Positions 837 to 6,809 of a DNA stretch of 8,025 nt are shown piece after piece. This DNA comes from a virus (lineage: Duplodnaviria > Heunggongvirae > Uroviricota > Caudoviricetes). The translations under genes and the position numbers were made by a program. The stretch's first letter is position 1; every line of letters starts with the position of its first letter. Where the stretch lies: positions 1 through 8,025 of IMG/VR virus record IMGVR_UViG_2585427729_000009; one strand, 5' to 3'. Under the pieces are notes generated by a model that was not told where the DNA came from, searched no databases, and was given only the letters and a program-made list of their open reading frames with translations.

Positions 837-1205
837 TCAGGCGGCCTTGATAGTCATATCATCTGAATCAAATATTTCTGATGTATCGATATCGGTAATT
901 CTTATTCCTTCACTACCATCCATTGGAGGCCATCCTTCCTGACCATTTCCATCATTCCAGTCGAACTCACACACAACACCATATGCATTTAAGTCGCTTG
1001 AAATTGCTATAAGCAGAGCATGTTGCGCCAGCATGATTAATACAGCATTTAATACAGAGCCGTGTTTATTGAGTCGGTATTCAGAGTCTGACCAGAAATT
1101 ATTAATCTGGTGAAGTTTTTCCTCTGTCATTACGTCATGGTCGATTTCAATTTCTATTGATGCTTTCCAGTCGTAATCAATGATGTATTTTTTGATGTTT
1201 GACAT
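837..1205 (-). CDS. ea10: Ea10 (lambda early protein, ssDNA-binding-like), 122 aa
   Basis: Track ORF of 122 aa, MSNIKKYIIDYDWKASIEIEIDHDVMTEEKL..., at the lambda ea10 position and length relative to cIII. Confidence 0.85.
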   Translation of the reverse strand: MSNIKKYIIDYDWKASIEIEIDHDVMTEEKLHQINNFWSDSEYRLNKHGSVLNAVLIMLAQHALLIAISSDLNAYGVVCEFDWNDGNGQEGWPPMDGSEGIRITDIDTSEIFDSDDMTIKAA

Positions 1206-2783: not shown

Positions 2784-2822
2784 TCACCTTCATGGTGGTT
2801 AGTGCGTCCTGCTGATGGCTAA

Positions 2823-2851
2823 ATAGTACGATTTGTACTTTATTGAGTCAA
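2823..2851 (-). promoter_or_regulatory. pL early leftward promoter
   Basis: Minus strand reads TTGACT (rc 2846..2851), 17-nt spacer, TACTAT (rc 2823..2828), then TTAGCCATCAGCAGGACGCAC, which aligns with the lambda pL transcript start region. The hexamers and spacer differ from lambda. Confidence 0.65.
2825..2839. promoter_or_regulatory. Putative operator OL1 (perfect inverted repeat AGTAC-N5-GTACT)
   Basis: agtacgatttgtact overlaps the pL -10 and spacer; same 15-bp pattern as sites in the cI-cro intergenic region. Confidence 0.5.
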
Positions 2852-2864
2852 TACAAAATGTTCT
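2850..2864. promoter_or_regulatory. Putative operator OL2
   Basis: aatacaaaatgttct fits the a-TAC-N5-GT pattern and overlaps the pL -35. Confidence 0.35.
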
Positions 2865-2882
2865 AAATATAATTGGTTTTTT

Positions 2883-2897
2883 ATAACGCTTTGTATT
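2883..2897. promoter_or_regulatory. Putative operator OL3
   Basis: ataacgctttgtatt fits the AC-N5-GTA-tt pattern; its spacer gcttt resembles the gctct spacer of the OR3 candidate. Confidence 0.3.
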
Positions 2898-2916
2898 TAG
2901 TGGGTTTATATTTTGG

Positions 2917-2945
2917 AAAAAAAAAACCCCGACACTAAGGTCGGG
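2917..2945 (-). terminator. Intrinsic terminator immediately downstream of cI
   Basis: Plus strand has A10 (2917..2926), stem CCCGAC (2928..2933), loop actaag, GTCGGG (2940..2945). On the minus strand this is a GC hairpin followed by T10, about 33 nt after the cI stop (2978..2980). Confidence 0.7.
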
Positions 2946-2977: not shown

Positions 2978-3637
2978 TTAACTAAATGTCTCTTCAGGCC
3001 ACTGGCTGGCGATAACTTTCCCTACTACGGAACAGCTATCATTGCATGGAATCATTGGATATTGCGGGTTTAGTGGCTGTAGGAACACCTGACCGCTATC
3101 CCTGATCAGTTTCTTGAAGGTAAACTCGTCACCACCAAGTCTGGCTATGCAGAAATCACCTGGCTCAACAGCCTGCTCAGGGTCAACGAGAATTAACATC
3201 CCGTCAGGAAAGCTTGGCTTGGATCCTGTTGGCGCGGTCATGGAATTACCTTCAACTTCAAGCCAGAACGCACAATCACTGGCTTTTTTGGTTGTGCTGA
3301 CCCATCTCTCCGCATCACCTTTGGTAAAGGTTCTAAGCTCAGGCGAGAACATCCCGGCCTGAACATGAGAAAAAACAGGGTACTCATATTGTTTTTTAAC
3401 GGGGGCAGATGAGTATTCGCCAACAGGTGAAAATGTACCGTCGTGGTTGAATGAGACGTTATCAATACCAAGGTATTTAAACACCACACCAATCTCGTCA
3501 AGAGATGGATGACGAGATCCGCGCAACCAGTGACCAATTCCACCCTGCGTCATACCAAGCTCTTCAGCTAACTTCTCTTGAGTTATGCCGAGCTCTTTCA
3601 TTCTGGATCTAGCCAGTTCATACCATTTCATTTTCAT
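2978..3637 (-). CDS. cI: CI-type immunity repressor; lambda-like C-terminal dimerisation/autocleavage (S24 peptidase) domain with a non-lambda N-terminal HTH (XRE-type) domain
   Basis: C-terminal part ...[39 protein letters not shown]...[12 protein letters not shown] matches lambda CI. N-terminal part [44 protein letters not shown]... does not. Start chosen at Met22 of the track ORF (rc 3635..3637) from HTH spacing; Met24 (3631) or the ORF start (3700) are alternatives. Confidence 0.85.
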
Positions 3638-3646
3638 ACCCTTATT

Positions 3647-3661
3647 ATTACGCTCTGTACT
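3647..3661. promoter_or_regulatory. Putative operator OR3
   Basis: attacgctctgtact (a-TAC-N5-GTACT), next to the cI start and overlapping the presumed pRM region. Confidence 0.4.
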
Positions 3662-3672
3662 AAAACCATCCA

Positions 3673-3687
3673 TGCACAAGATGTATT
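3673..3687. promoter_or_regulatory. Putative operator OR2
   Basis: tgcacaagatgtatt shares the AC-N5-GTA-tt core with the other candidate sites. Confidence 0.35.
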
Positions 3688-3694
3688 TTTTTGT

Positions 3695-3723
3695 TTGCAT
3701 TCTAAAAGTACATATCGTATTAT
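3695..3723 (+). promoter_or_regulatory. pR early rightward promoter (candidate)
   Basis: TTGCAT (3695..3700), 17-nt spacer, TATTAT (3718..3723), about 27 nt upstream of the cro ATG, which has a GGAGGG Shine-Dalgarno at 3741..3746. Confidence 0.5.
3707..3721. promoter_or_regulatory. Putative operator OR1
   Basis: agtacatatcgtatt matches the minus-strand reading of OL1 (AGTACAAATCGTACT) at 13 of 15 positions and overlaps the pR spacer and -10, as OL1 overlaps pL. Confidence 0.5.
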
Positions 3724-3749
3724 TGTTTCATGGTTACTATGGAGGGCAT

Positions 3750-3965
3750 ATGAGCAACCTACGAAAATATCGAGAGTCACTGAATATCTCTCAAACAACA
3801 CTTGCTAAGGCAGTTGGATGCACACAGGGAGCTATCGGACATTGGGAATCTGGTCGTCGCTTCCCAGACCTTAAAACATGCCGTGCTCTTGTTGAGTGCC
3901 TAAACAAGTTAGGCGCAAAAGTCAGTCTTGATGACGTGTTCCCGCCGGAACACAAAGCCGCTTAA
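3750..3965 (+). CDS. cro: Cro-like repressor (71 aa, HTH XRE-type; not lambda Cro)
   Basis: MSNLRKYRESLNISQTTLAKAVGCTQGAIGHWESGRRFPDLK..., with start ATG 3750..3752 after a strong SD. The track ORF from 3585 is an upstream extension. Divergent from cI and followed by nutR, as for lambda cro. Confidence 0.85.
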   Translation: MSNLRKYRESLNISQTTLAKAVGCTQGAIGHWESGRRFPDLKTCRALVECLNKLGAKVSLDDVFPPEHKAA

Positions 3966-3973
3966 GACATTCC

Positions 3974-4005
3974 CGCTCTTACACATCCCAGCCCTGAAAA
4001 AGGGC
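3974..4005 (+). promoter_or_regulatory. nutR: nutR (boxA CGCTCTTAC + boxB GCCCTGAAAAAGGGC); tR1 region follows
   Basis: Exact boxA at 3974..3982 and boxB hairpin at 3991..4005; the sequence on to the cII start matches my memory of the lambda tR1 region. Confidence 0.9.
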
Positions 4006-4084
4006 ATCAAATTAAACCACACCTATGGTGTATGCATTTATTTGCATACATTCAATCAATTGTTATCTAAGGAAATACTTACAT

Positions 4085-4378
4085 ATGGTTCGTGCAAACA
4101 AACGCAACGAGGCTCTACGAATCGAGAGTGCGTTGCTTAACAAAATCGCAATGCTTGGAACTGAGAAGACAGCGGAAGCTGTGGGAGTTGATAAGTCGCA
4201 GATCAGCAGGTGGAAGAGAGACTGGATTCCAAAGTTCTCAATGCTGCTTGCTGTTCTTGAATGGGGGGTCGTTGACGACGACATGGCTCGATTGGCGCGA
4301 CAAGTTGCTGCGATTCTCACCAATAAAAAACGCCCGGCGGCAACCGAGCGTTCTGAACAAATCCAGATGGAGTTCTGA
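4085..4378 (+). CDS. cII: CII transcriptional activator (97 aa)
   Basis: MVRANKRNEALRIESALLNKIAMLGTEKTAEAVGVDKSQISRWKRDWIPKFSMLLAVLEWGVVDDDMARLARQVAAILTNKKRPAATERSEQIQMEF. Start at 4085 after TAAGGAAATACTTACAT; the track ORF from 4025 is an upstream extension. Confidence 0.93.
   Translation: MVRANKRNEALRIESALLNKIAMLGTEKTAEAVGVDKSQISRWKRDWIPKFSMLLAVLEWGVVDDDMARLARQVAAILTNKKRPAATERSEQIQMEF
4094..4107 (-). promoter_or_regulatory. CII-binding site of pRE (TTGC-N6-TTGC) overlapping the cII 5' end
   Basis: rc(4094..4107)=TTGCGTTTGTTTGC, the direct-repeat CII recognition element; the pRE -10 would lie just downstream on the minus strand, around 4070..4080. Confidence 0.55.
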
Positions 4379-4398
4379 GGTCATTACTGGATCTATCA
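4322..4398 (-). ncRNA. oop: oop antisense RNA (approximate ends) with terminator hairpin inside the cII 3' end
   Basis: Minus strand reads CGCTCGGTTGCCGCCGGGCG followed by TTTTTT (plus 4326..4351), the oop terminator shape, complementary to the cII 3' end. The 5' end is placed by analogy to lambda, not seen directly. Confidence 0.45.
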
Positions 4399-4410
4399 AC
4401 AGGAGTCATT

Positions 4411-5310
4411 ATGACAAATACAGCAAAAATACTCAACTTCGGCAGAGGTAACTTTGCCGGACAGGAGCGTAATGTGGCAGATCTCGATGATGGTTACGCC
4501 AGACTATCAAATATGCTGCTTGAGGCTTATTCAGGCGCAGATCTGACCAAGCGACAGTTTAAAGTGCTGCTTGCCATTCTGCGTAAAACCTATGGGTGGA
4601 ATAAACCAATGGACAGAATCACCGATTCTCAACTTAGCGAGATTACAAAGTTACCTGTCAAACGGTGCAATGAAGCCAAGTTAGAACTCGTCAGAATGAA
4701 TATTATCAAGCAGCAAGGCGGCATGTTTGGACCAAATAAAAACATCTCAGAATGGTGTATCCCTCAAAACGAGGGAAAATCCCCTAAAACGAGGGATAAA
4801 ACATCCCTCAAATTGGGGGATTGCTATCCCTCAAAACAGGGGAACACAAAAGACACTAATACAAAAGAAAAAAGAAAAGATTATTCGTCCGAGAATTCTG
4901 GCGAATCCTCTGACCAGCCAGAAAACGATCTTTCTGTGGTTAAACCGGATGCTGCAATTCAGAGCGGCAGCAGGTGGGGGACAGCAGAAGACCTGACCGC
5001 CGCAGAGTGGATGTTTGACATGGTGAAGACTATCGCGCCATCAGCCAGAAAACCGAATTTTGCAGGGTGGGCTAACGATATCCGCCTGATGCGTGAACGT
5101 GACGGACGTAACCACCGCGATATGTGTGTGCTGTTCCGCTGGGCCTGCCAGGACAACTTCTGGTCCGGTAATGTGCTGAGCCCGGCCAAACTCCGCGACA
5201 AGTGGACCCAGCTCGAAATCAACCGTAACAAGCAACAGGCAGTAGTGACAGCCAGCAAACCAAAACTCGACTTGACAAACACAGACTGGATTTACGGGGT
5301 GGATTTATGA
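4411..5310 (+). CDS. O: O replication initiator protein (299 aa)
   Basis: MTNTAKILNFGRGNFAGQERNVADLDDGYARLSNMLLEAY... matches lambda O along its length; contains the ori iterons. Confidence 0.95.
   Translation: MTNTAKILNFGRGNFAGQERNVADLDDGYARLSNMLLEAYSGADLTKRQFKVLLAILRKTYGWNKPMDRITDSQLSEITKLPVKRCNEAKLELVRMNIIKQQGGMFGPNKNISEWCIPQNEGKSPKTRDKTSLKLGDCYPSKQGNTKDTNTKEKRKDYSSENSGESSDQPENDLSVVKPDAAIQSGSRWGTAEDLTAAEWMFDMVKTIAPSARKPNFAGWANDIRLMRERDGRNHRDMCVLFRWACQDNFWSGNVLSPAKLRDKWTQLEINRNKQQAVVTASKPKLDLTNTDWIYGVDL
4760..4890. other. Origin of replication (ori-lambda type): four about 18-bp iterons plus adjacent AT-rich tract, inside the O gene
   Basis: Iterons tccctcaaaacgaggga (4760..4776), tcccctaaaacgaggga (4780..4796), atccctcaaattggggga (4803..4820), atccctcaaaacagggga (4826..4843), followed by an A-rich stretch to about 4890. 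Confidence 0.85.
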
Positions 5311-6008
5311 AAAACATCGCCGCACAGATGGTTAACTTTGACCGTGAGCAGATGCGTCGGATCGCCAACAACATGCCGGAACAGTACGACGAAAAGCCTC
5401 AGGTACAGCAGGTAGCGCAGATCATCAACGGTGTGTTCAGCCAGTTACTGGCAACTTTCCCGGCGAGCCTGGCTAACCGTGACCAGAACGAACTGAACGA
5501 AATCCGCCGCCAGTGGGTTCTGGCTTTCCGGGAAAACGGGATCACCACAATGGAACAGGTTAACGCAGGAATGCGCGTAGCCCGTCGGCAGAATCGACCA
5601 TTTCTGCCATCACCCGGGCAGTTTGTTGCATGGTGCCGGGAAGAAGCATCCGTTATCGCCGGACTGCCAAACGCCAGCGAGCTGGTTGATATGGTTTACG
5701 AGTATTGCCGGAAGCGTGGCCTGTATCCAGATGCAGAGTCTTATCCGTGGAAATCAAACGCGCACTACTGGCTGGTTACCAACCTGTACCAGAACATGCG
5801 GGCCAATGCGCTGACTGACGCGGAATTACGGCGTAAGGCTGCCGATGAGCTGACCTGTATGACAGCGCGAATTAACTGTGGTGAGACTATACCTGAACCA
5901 GTAAAACAACTTCCTGTCATGGGCGGCAGACCTCTAAATCGAGCACAGGCTCTGGCGAAGATCGCAGAAATTAAAGCTAAGTTCGGACTGAAAGGAGCAA
6001 GTGTATGA
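5307..6008 (+). CDS. P: P replication protein (DnaB helicase loader), 233 aa
   Basis: MKNIAAQMVNFDREQMRRIANNMPEQYDEKPQVQQ... matches lambda P; its ATG overlaps the O stop (ATGA at 5307..5310). Confidence 0.95.
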   Translation: MKNIAAQMVNFDREQMRRIANNMPEQYDEKPQVQQVAQIINGVFSQLLATFPASLANRDQNELNEIRRQWVLAFRENGITTMEQVNAGMRVARRQNRPFLPSPGQFVAWCREEASVIAGLPNASELVDMVYEYCRKRGLYPDAESYPWKSNAHYWLVTNLYQNMRANALTDAELRRKAADELTCMTARINCGETIPEPVKQLPVMGGRPLNRAQALAKIAEIKAKFGLKGASV

Positions 6009-6295
6009 CGGGCAAAGAGGCAATTATTCATTACCTCGGAACGCATAAGAGCTTCTGTGCACAGGACGTTTCCGCGCTAACAGGCGCAACAGTAACCAGC
6101 ATAAATCAGGCCGCGGCTAAAATGGCACGGGCAGGTCTTCTGGTTATCGAAGGTAAGGTCTGGCGAACGGTGTATTACCGGTTCGCTACCAGAGAAGAAC
6201 GGGAAGGAAAGGTGAGCACGAACCTGATTTTTAAGGAGTGTCGCCAGAGTGCCGCGATGAAACGGGTATTGGCGGTATATGGAGTTAAAAGATGA
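6005..6295 (+). CDS. ren: Ren (Rex-exclusion escape protein), 96 aa
   Basis: MTGKEAIIHYLGTH...VLAVYGVKR matches lambda Ren; its ATG overlaps the P stop (ATGA). Confidence 0.9.
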   Translation: MTGKEAIIHYLGTHKSFCAQDVSALTGATVTSINQAAAKMARAGLLVIEGKVWRTVYYRFATREEREGKVSTNLIFKECRQSAAMKRVLAVYGVKR

Positions 6296-6320
6296 CCATC
6301 TACATCACTGAGCTAATAAC

Positions 6321-6352
6321 AGGCCTGCTGGTAATCGCAGGCCTTTTTATTT
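6321..6352 (+). terminator. tR2-like intrinsic terminator between ren and ninB
   Basis: Stem AGGCCTGC (6321..6328), loop tggtaatc, GCAGGCCT (6337..6344), then TTTTTATTT. Confidence 0.65.
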
Positions 6353-6368
6353 GGGGGAGAGGGAAGTC

Positions 6369-6809
6369 ATGAAAAAACTAACCTTTGAAATTCGATCTCC
6401 AGCACATCAGCAAAACGCTATTCACGCGGTACAGCAAATTCTTCCAGACCCAACCAAACCAATCGTAGTAACCATTCAGGAACGCAACCGCAGCTTAGAC
6501 CAGAATCGAAAGCTTTGGGCTTGCCTTGGTGACGTCTCTCGTCAGGTTGAATGGCATGGTCGCTGGCTGGATGCAGAAAGCTGGAAGTGCGTTTTTACAG
6601 CAGCATTAAAGCAGCAGGACGTTGTTCCTAACCTTGCCGGGAATGGCTTTGTGGTAATAGGCCAGTCAACCAGCAGGATGCGTGTAAGCGAATTTGCGGA
6701 GCTATTAGAGCTTATACAGGCATTCGGTACAGAGCGTGGCGTTAAGTGGTCAGACGAAGCGCGACTGGCTCTCGAATGGAAAGCGCGATGGGGAGATCGG
6801 GCTGCATGA
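6369..6809 (+). CDS. ninB: NinB (Orf-family recombination mediator), 146 aa
   Basis: MKKLTFEIRSPAHQQNAIHAVQQILPDPTKPIVVTIQERNRSLDQNRKLW... Start ATG 6369 after GGAGAGGGAAG; the track ORF from 6351 begins at a TTG and is an extension. Confidence 0.9.
   Translation: MKKLTFEIRSPAHQQNAIHAVQQILPDPTKPIVVTIQERNRSLDQNRKLWACLGDVSRQVEWHGRWLDAESWKCVFTAALKQQDVVPNLAGNGFVVIGQSTSRMRVSEFAELLELIQAFGTERGVKWSDEARLALEWKARWGDRAA

Follow-up and report, generated by a model that had tools for sequence, protein, structure and literature searches.

The stretch of viral DNA analyzed here (the window; 8,025 nucleotides) is a lambdoid early region that is mosaic relative to phage lambda. Homology to lambda extends over positions 1-1365 (the last part of bet through ea10), 2282-2817 (N, nutL and the DNA as far as the pL start), 2984-3388 (the C-terminal domain of cI) and 3972-6809 (nutR, cII, O, P, ren and ninB). 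The segments 2818-2983, which carries OL, pL and a terminator, and 3389-3971, which carries the N-terminal domain of cI, OR and cro, are not homologous to lambda. The repressor gene cI lies on the minus strand (2978..3637) and, according to Pfam, encodes an HTH_3 domain at the N-terminus and an S24 peptidase domain (Peptidase_S24) at the C-terminus. The divergent cro gene (3750..3965, plus strand) encodes a 71-aa protein that Pfam likewise assigns to HTH_3, with the recognition helix TQGAIGHW. An adjacent repressor gene with a divergent cro is the arrangement found at lambdoid left operators. The recognition-helix motif TQG-IGHW is common to CI and Cro, as would be expected of two proteins that read the same operators. 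Downstream of cI, a terminator scan identified an intrinsic terminator on the minus strand (2918..2945), in which a stem at 2945..2928 is followed by a T-run; VT2-Sakai carries an equivalent annotation, the 'terminator for pRM transcript'.

The cI reading frame probably starts at 3637 or 3631. Two other starts, at 3700 (the longest ORF) and at 3673 (PGAP), were set aside as unlikely because both lie inside OR; in related variants, the substitution C3698T destroys the ATG at 3700. We also observed that, with AATAAT (3649..3644) as the pRM -10, the mRNA would be nearly leaderless.

A sigma-70-type promoter on the minus strand at 2823..2851 was found by promoter scan, with the -35 hexamer TTGACT (2851..2846), a 17-bp spacer and the -10 hexamer TACTAT (2828..2823). 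It sits between the repressor gene and N, with homologues of N and nutL downstream and cI upstream, and it is the positional counterpart of the VT2-Sakai feature 'putative major leftward promoter' (record AP000422). How might its start point be placed? In a four-way alignment, GCGTCCTGCTGATG is invariant across lambda, 434, VT2-Sakai and the window, and in 434 the 'first nt of left transcript from pL' is annotated. Because of this invariance and the 434 annotation, which together with the lambda alignment served as the anchor, we placed the inferred pL +1 at 2816, an A on the minus strand, so that the transcript would begin AUCAGCAGGACGC. The first-pass annotation had called this region pL from the sequence alone, and both the hexamers and the aligned start agree with that identification.

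The same alignments define the left boundary of the immunity module. The 17-bp sequence GCGTCCTGCTGATGGCT (2804..2820) is near-identical in lambda, 434, VT2-Sakai and the window, with lambda having one additional base and VT2-Sakai carrying one substitution. Homology to lambda stops at 2817-2820, as judged from BLAST end points and alignments, and the four-way alignment puts the end of identity to both lambda and 434 at 2820/2821, a point 4-5 bp upstream of the pL +1. In loci that carry a different N module, the alignment starts at 2804 and proceeds rightward only. Because identity ends at 2820/2821 on one side and the loci with a different N module align from 2804 on the other, we deduced that 2804-2820 is a shared junction. 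It had been proposed that the DNA is lambda-like downstream of the pL start and non-lambda upstream of it, with a breakpoint of the immunity swap right at the pL +1; the first of these statements is borne out, and the second is right to within 5 bp.

Three 17-bp sites lie at and upstream of pL. The first, OL1 (2824..2840; TAGTACGATTTGTACTT), occupies -8 to -24 of pL and covers the -10 and the spacer. In its core, AGTACGATTTGTACT (2825-2839), two perfectly inverted 5-bp arms flank a spacer of 5 bp, and this palindrome overlaps 4 bp of the pL -10 and most of the promoter spacer. The second, OL2 (2849..2865; CAATACAAAATGTTCTA), occupies -33 to -49 and overlaps the -35 by 2-3 bp; its core, AATACAAAATGTTCT (2850-2864), has two arm mismatches. 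The third, OL3 (2882..2898; TATAACGCTTTGTATTT), occupies -66 to -82, and its core, ATAACGCTTTGTATT (2883-2897), has three arm mismatches. The sites are centred at -16, -41 and -74 relative to the pL start, with centre-to-centre distances of 25 bp for OL1-OL2 and 33 bp for OL2-OL3. Their homologues in VT2-Sakai are the putative operator at 9894-9910 for OL1 and the operators at 9919-9935 and 9952-9968 for OL2 and OL3, respectively. OL1 is identified by this homology, by conservation and by its being the top match of a matrix trained on the OR sites; OL2 by conservation, spacing and homology to VT2-Sakai; and OL3 by conservation and homology to VT2-Sakai.

Three further copies of the motif are found between cI and cro, with cores that start at 3647, 3673 and 3707. 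These are OR3 (3646..3662; TATTACGCTCTGTACTA), OR2 (3672..3688; ATGCACAAGATGTATTT) and OR1 (3706..3722; AAGTACATATCGTATTA). OR1 lies over the spacer and the -10 of pR, for which a promoter scan gave TTGCAT (3695-3700), a 17-bp spacer and TATTAT (3718-3723). All three sites are annotated, as themselves or as homologues, in the Stx1-converting phage and in VT2-Sakai; OR3 is identified in addition by motif and conservation, OR2 by conservation and OR1 by motif. The first-pass annotation had described a perfect inverted repeat over the -10 and spacer of pL and two weaker relatives upstream, and each of these was recovered where it had been placed, the repeat against a -10 that was located by the scan. 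It had also stated that the repeat and the pR-proximal site agree at 13 of 15 positions. This is correct when the repeat is compared with the reverse complement of that site, AATACGATATGTACT, that is, in promoter-relative orientation, but on the same strand the match falls to 10 of 15.

Over the six sites, the half-site consensus is (T/A)A(G/A)TAC(A/G)a, which gives a full site of about TAGTACAA-N-TTGTACTA, and A5 and C6 are present in 12 of 12 half-sites. We rejected the palindrome as evidence on its own, because the window contains 17 perfect 5-N5-5 inverted repeats, compared with about 7.8 expected. That such repeats are common, and that the region consists of AT-rich promoter DNA, would suit a palindrome that arose by chance, that belongs to the promoter only, or that serves a host factor such as LexA, in each case unrelated to a phage repressor. 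However, the recurrence of the motif is confined to OL and OR. When at most one arm mismatch is allowed, AGTAC-N5-GTACT has three matches in the 8 kb (2825, 3647 and 3707), whereas 0.08 would be expected; 0 of 200 shuffles reached three matches, and all three of these near-perfect matches fall in the two control regions that flank cI. Cross-validation between OR and OL also succeeds, in that 2825 is the best match in the window to a half-site matrix derived only from the three OR sites, with a score that 0 of 200 shuffled windows equalled. The motif statistics that had been proposed as a check thus favour the original observation, as far as 2825 is concerned. With the same matrix, 2883 ranks sixth and 2850 seventh (window-wide p about 0.25-0.3). 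Score alone does not make OL2 and OL3 significant; their support comes from position, spacing and conservation. Furthermore, a search of 2780-2960 for a LexA-box-like sequence (CTGT-N8-ACAG, with at most one mismatch) gave no match, and the half-sites are conserved while their centres vary. We therefore regard an origin of the palindrome unrelated to a phage repressor as extremely improbable. A site at 1039, TAATACAGCATTTAATA, was considered as a seventh operator and rejected, because the same sequence occurs in the shared ea10 of lambda and 434, whose immunities are different.

The pattern of conservation among relatives was obtained from a scan of viral contigs, which yielded 80 loci with an identical repressor N-terminal domain (99% identical in one locus). 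Together with phage loci, these gave 46 distinct sequences of OL and 28 of OR. Variation in OL affects 4 of the 30 half-site columns, compared with 27 of the 55 columns outside the half-sites (P = 8e-4, one-sided Fisher test); for OR, the corresponding figures are 0 of 30 and 25 of 82 (P = 1.3e-4). These P values are approximate, because the sequences are phylogenetically non-independent and OL1 and OL2 overlap promoter hexamers. For the same two sites, conservation is partly confounded with that of the pL hexamers; the pattern is nevertheless clear, and OL3, which overlaps no hexamer, has it too. Variation within the sites lies mostly in the central spacer, and the DNA between the sites varies heavily. 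The half-sites of OL1 are invariant in the 46 sequences but for one variant, and OL2 varies at only three columns, 2850, 2857 and 2858, each in 1 of 46, two of which are central and one of which belongs to a half-site. The 25-bp spacing of OL1 and OL2 is invariant in 81 loci, and the 26-bp spacing of OR3 and OR2 does not vary among about 80 loci; we attribute both of these fixed spacings to promoter geometry. The distance from OL2 to OL3 ranges from 32 to 34 bp among relatives, and that from OR2 to OR1 ranges from 32 to 35 bp by way of a T-tract, with 34 bp in the window. The variable OR2-OR1 spacing is not what strict lambda-like, phase-dependent cooperativity between OR1 and OR2 predicts.

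Is OL3 an operator? It might be supposed that only OL1, and perhaps OL2, is functional, so that the left operator would have two sites, as in 933W, and that 2883-2897 is conserved but non-functional or serves something other than the repressor. OL3 has the weakest arm match of the three sites, its matrix rank is sixth at a window-wide p of about 0.25, its left half and centre vary slightly, its distance from OL2 is not fixed, and 933W has been reported in the literature to lack an OL3. Against this, the right half-site, GTATTT, is invariant in all 46 variants, although the flanking DNA varies greatly on either side. VT2-Sakai also retains OL3, although its OL as a whole is only 80% identical; the site ranks within the first six matrix matches in that independent locus, and Sakai is stated to have an OL3 (Yin et al., PMC4587872). 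For these reasons we consider it unlikely that OL3 is non-functional, and we treat it below as a putative operator together with OL1 and OL2.

To which immunity does this module belong? The CI proteins of the window and of VT2-Sakai share 96% identity and have the same recognition helix and HTH; the N-terminal domains differ at three residues (D/S, E/D and V/I), all outside helices 2 and 3. Cro is identical to VT2-Sakai Cro at 70 of 71 residues (99%). An N-terminal repressor domain with 96% identity is found in VT2-Sakai (Sp5), in the Stx1-converting phage of record AP005153 and in Stx2 phage II, and also in 1717, YYZ-2008, 2851, Nil2 and the PA-series Stx2a phages. Several of these records already bear operator annotations. 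Record AP005153 annotates 17-bp 'putative operator' features, three at OR and three at OL; record AP000422 (VT2-Sakai) annotates three OL and three OR putative operators along with a 217-aa CI; and the six homologous 17-mers are again labelled 'putative operator' in Stx2 phage II (AP005154). The same pL is marked in all three records. In alignments, the annotated operators are positional homologues of the window sites with the same half-sites, and the differences are mainly central or between sites. Moreover, when a matrix built from the six window sites was run over the 5.3-kb VT2-Sakai locus, its top six matches were exactly the six annotated operators. According to Table S5 of Yin et al. 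2015 (PMC4587872), the six operator sequences are those of PST1 phages and are credited to Fattah et al. 2000; the operator sequences match those in the table.

We conclude that 2823-2898 is very probably the pL/OL control region of a lambdoid prophage with VT2-Sakai (Sp5) immunity, and that OL1, OL2 and OL3 are putative CI/Cro operators. The proposal that the palindrome and its two relatives are OL-like operators is upheld by the motif in common with OR, by the islands of conservation and by homology to the six annotated features. The operator set itself is already known; the observation was correct but ordinary, since these operators have been predicted and annotated since about 2000. We came across no footprint, EMSA or reporter assay of the cognate repressor in the searchable literature, outside which Fattah et al. 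2000 and Sato et al. 2003 lie.

Three other immunities were considered. The immunity of H-19B, with the operators of Shi and Friedman, was rejected, because the CI proteins are only weakly similar, in S24, and the H-19B OR is unrelated. For 434 immunity, we looked for 14-bp ACAAnnnnnnTTGT sites of the form ACAA-N6-TTGT together with a 434-type repressor, and neither describes the window; identity to 434 ends at ~2820-2823, the oL sites annotated in 434 fail to align with those of the window, and the window matrix has weak matches in the 434 locus (10.4 or below), the best of which lies in ea10. The third comparison is with lambda. The sites could be regarded as diverged lambda operators of lambda-type specificity, in a module that is functionally imm-lambda. 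The operator length of 17 bp and the half-site positions T1, A2, A5 and C6 are in common with the lambda half-site TATCAC, and the HTH of CI retains the counterparts of lambda Q33 and Q44. The C-terminal domain of CI is nearly identical to that of lambda CI. Measurable binding of lambda CI to oligonucleotides of the VT2-Sakai operators has been described (PMC10742460), and cross-immunity is attributed to Fattah et al. as cited in the same paper. However, the N-terminal domain of CI has only remote similarity to that of lambda (E about 1e-3) and is without the lambda N-terminal arm. On the window motif, lambda operators score -9.4 to 3.9, compared with 13.6 to 20.6 for the window sites; there is no DNA alignment to lambda OL past 2820, and 17-bp operators of the TATCACCGC type that could be aligned to lambda 35591-35651 were not found in the window. 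The apparent dissociation constants (KDapp) of lambda CI are 3.7-6.4 uM for the VT2-Sakai sites versus 0.2-0.35 uM for lambda OL1/OR1 (PMC10742460). The common positions 1, 2, 5 and 6 of TATCAC and the common Q33/Q44 residues fit this weak binding. We therefore hold it very improbable that the module has lambda specificity, in keeping with the earlier view that these sequences are not an ordinary lambda OL, and we retain the assignment to VT2-Sakai immunity.

How might the putative operators act? Dimers of the CI encoded next to them would bind the three OL sites, and CI bound at OL1 and OL2 would sterically block RNA polymerase at the -10 and -35, so that N and the leftward operon would be silent in the lysogen. 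Cro, which has a near-identical recognition helix, would occupy the same sites early in lytic growth. RecA-stimulated self-cleavage of CI at the conserved Ala-Gly site, in a region identical to that of lambda CI, would be expected to lift the block at pL. The role of OL3 would most likely be auxiliary, through higher-order, lambda-like contacts between CI bound there and CI bound at OR, about 0.9 kb away. We infer binding, repression, cooperativity and looping by the cognate CI from the recurrence of the motif, its overlap with the promoters, its conservation and its homology to annotated operators.

The repressor combines a lambda-type cooperativity domain with a different DNA-binding domain, and there is an outside chance that the switch is wired differently from that of lambda. 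OR2 and OR1 are about one helical turn further apart than in lambda, and their distance is length-polymorphic (32-35 bp). The pairs that are closely spaced and invariant are OL1-OL2 (25 bp) and OR3-OR2 (26 bp). The pattern of spacings would fit any one of the following: an absence of phase-dependent OR1-OR2 cooperativity, as in 933W; cooperativity with a tolerance of ~100 degrees of twist; or reliance on OL-OR looping over only ~0.9 kb. Mixed oligomers of lambda CI and VT2-Sakai CI could also form through the near-identical C-terminal domains, and these might explain the cross-immunity that is reported second-hand from Fattah et al.

Of 5,426 complete E. coli genomes, 776 contain at least 80% of a 946-bp query spanning OL, cI and OR, and this immunity type is very common among E. 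coli prophages. The operator set would govern prophage induction for the immunity type of the Sakai Stx2a prophage and of other Stx prophages. For the window, the result is mainly one of annotation: pL, OL1-3, OR1-3, the likely cI start and the boundary of the module, which lies 4-5 bp upstream of where pL starts. The operator set adds no new biology.

The closest known systems are VT2-Sakai and the phages of records AP005153 and AP005154, which have the same positions of the pL hexamers, the same OL1-OL2-OL3 spacing (25 + 33 bp) and, at homologous positions, six 17-bp sites whose half-sites are those of the window; these are the 'putative operators' of Makino, Fattah and Sato, which Yin et al. 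list under PST1. The window differs from this group in the central spacers of OL1 (GATTT versus GATAT) and OL2 (AAAAT versus AATTT), in one base of OL3 (T versus C) and in one outer base each of OR1 and OR3; the inter-operator DNA is only about 50% identical. OR2 and OR1 are 34 bp apart in the window and 32 bp apart in VT2-Sakai. In the window, OL1 and OR1 are separated by 882 bp, and cI is followed directly by the terminator and OL, whereas VT2-Sakai has two extra ORFs and a corresponding distance of about 2.3 kb. The flank that carries N and nutL is of the lambda type in the window, in contrast to the 933W/H-19B type.

The likeness to lambda is one of architecture. In both, the left operator is made up of three pseudo-symmetric sites of 17 bp, of which OL1 lies on the -10 and spacer and OL2 on the -35; a matching triplet forms OR, where OR2 abuts the -35 of pRM, and the domain for dimerisation and cleavage at the C-terminus of the repressor is almost identical. 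Relative to the pL start, OL2 occupies -33 to -49 in both, and OL1 is displaced by a single position (-9 to -25 in lambda). OL3 lies at -53 to -69 in lambda, so that the OL3 of the window is 13 bp further upstream. The half-sites, TAGTAC in the window and TATCAC in lambda, agree at positions 1, 2, 5 and 6 (T, A, A and C). The OR1-OR2 distance is 34 bp in the window versus 24 bp in lambda, and, unlike lambda, the window is without rexAB.

A more distant relative is the Salmonella phage epsilon34 (and also g341c, SPN9CC and the ST64T/L c2 type), in which the N-terminal domain of the repressor is 52-54% identical to that of the window (52% for epsilon34). Potential repressor-binding sites of the form ATAC-N5-GTAT are annotated at pL and pR of epsilon34, and these have the core TAC-N5-GTA in common with the window sites. 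However, only two sites are annotated per operator in epsilon34, the outer half-site bases differ (ATAC, compared with A/G-TAC flanked by TA in the window), the recognition helices differ (VTKGAVSHWLNG on one side), and the host and the surrounding modules of epsilon34 are not those of the window.

Where did the immunity module become joined to its neighbours? The first transcribed bases of the leftward early promoter pL form a 17-bp stretch, GCGTCCTGCTGATGGCT (window 2804-2820), that is common to lambda, 434, the Shiga-toxin phage VT2-Sakai and the window; the lambda copy carries a single additional base, and the VT2-Sakai copy differs by one substitution. Flanking sequence diverges on one side or the other, depending on the phage. 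The stretch resembles a recombination junction, with the N module on one side and the immunity module on the other. Compared with lambda, the repressor is itself a natural chimera. The DNA encoding its C-terminal domain (2984-3388) is 94% identical to that of lambda cI, and the protein there is almost identical, whereas the N-terminal domain (3389-3637) bears only a remote similarity to that of lambda and is without the N-terminal arm. A bidirectional terminator (2928-2945) directly follows cI, and both rexA and rexB are absent. Between ea10 and N, in place of the ral/sieB region of lambda, there is a 293-aa ORF on the minus strand (1394-2275), which has no Pfam match and whose homologue in 434 is annotated as a 'Nun C-terminal peptide-containing protein'. 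In the nin region, a plus-strand ORF encoding a phage Dam N6-adenine methyltransferase (PF05869; 6746-7333) lies where lambda carries ninC.

The start of cI is ambiguous, with several candidates within window 3631-3700. The longest ORF would place it at 3700, and the PGAP annotation of a near-identical genome at about 3673; both positions fall inside OR, the operator region between cI and cro. The ATG at 3700 is lost through C3698T in VT2-Sakai-type variants, and the VT2-Sakai record places the start at the equivalent of window 3631 (217 aa). From the sequence AATAAT (3649..3644), which resembles a -10 element of the cI promoter pRM, transcription would begin at about 3637, and the cI mRNA would then have almost no leader, as is the case in lambda. 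In the feature table of AP005153, a Stx1-converting phage of the same immunity type, pL is labelled 'putative maintenance promoter for CI', a labelling slip; similarly, Table S5 of Yin et al. 2015 (PMC4587872) labels the N-proximal sites 'OR' and the cro-proximal sites 'OL'.

The centre-to-centre distance between OR2 and OR1 (window 3672-3722) varies among the related prophage loci (L006-L086) and the window, being 32, 33, 34 and 35 bp in 3, 71 (three of them measured by eye from printed sequence), 8 (including the window) and 2 sequences, respectively. This polymorphism is due to a T-tract between OR2 and the pR -35 element (3686-3692 in the window). Such variation is not expected under phase-sensitive, lambda-type OR1-OR2 cooperativity. 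The OR3-OR2 (26 bp) and OL1-OL2 (25 bp) distances are constant in all related loci compared.

Apart from OL and OR, the best match to the operator motif is TAATACAGCATTTAATA (window 1038-1054). Lambda and 434, phages of other immunities, carry the identical sequence in their ea10 genes, so this is a chance match, and we rejected it as an operator. In Salmonella phage epsilon34, the annotated potential repressor-binding sites (1914-1926, 1973-1985, 3867-3879 and 3892-3904 of its locus, L087) are mostly ATAC-N5-GTAT, one being TTAC-N5-GTAT, and share the core TAC-N5-GTA with the window operators. Because the N-terminal domain of the epsilon34 repressor is 52% identical to that of the window CI, this sequence comparison suggests a wider repressor-operator family across E. 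coli and Salmonella phages.
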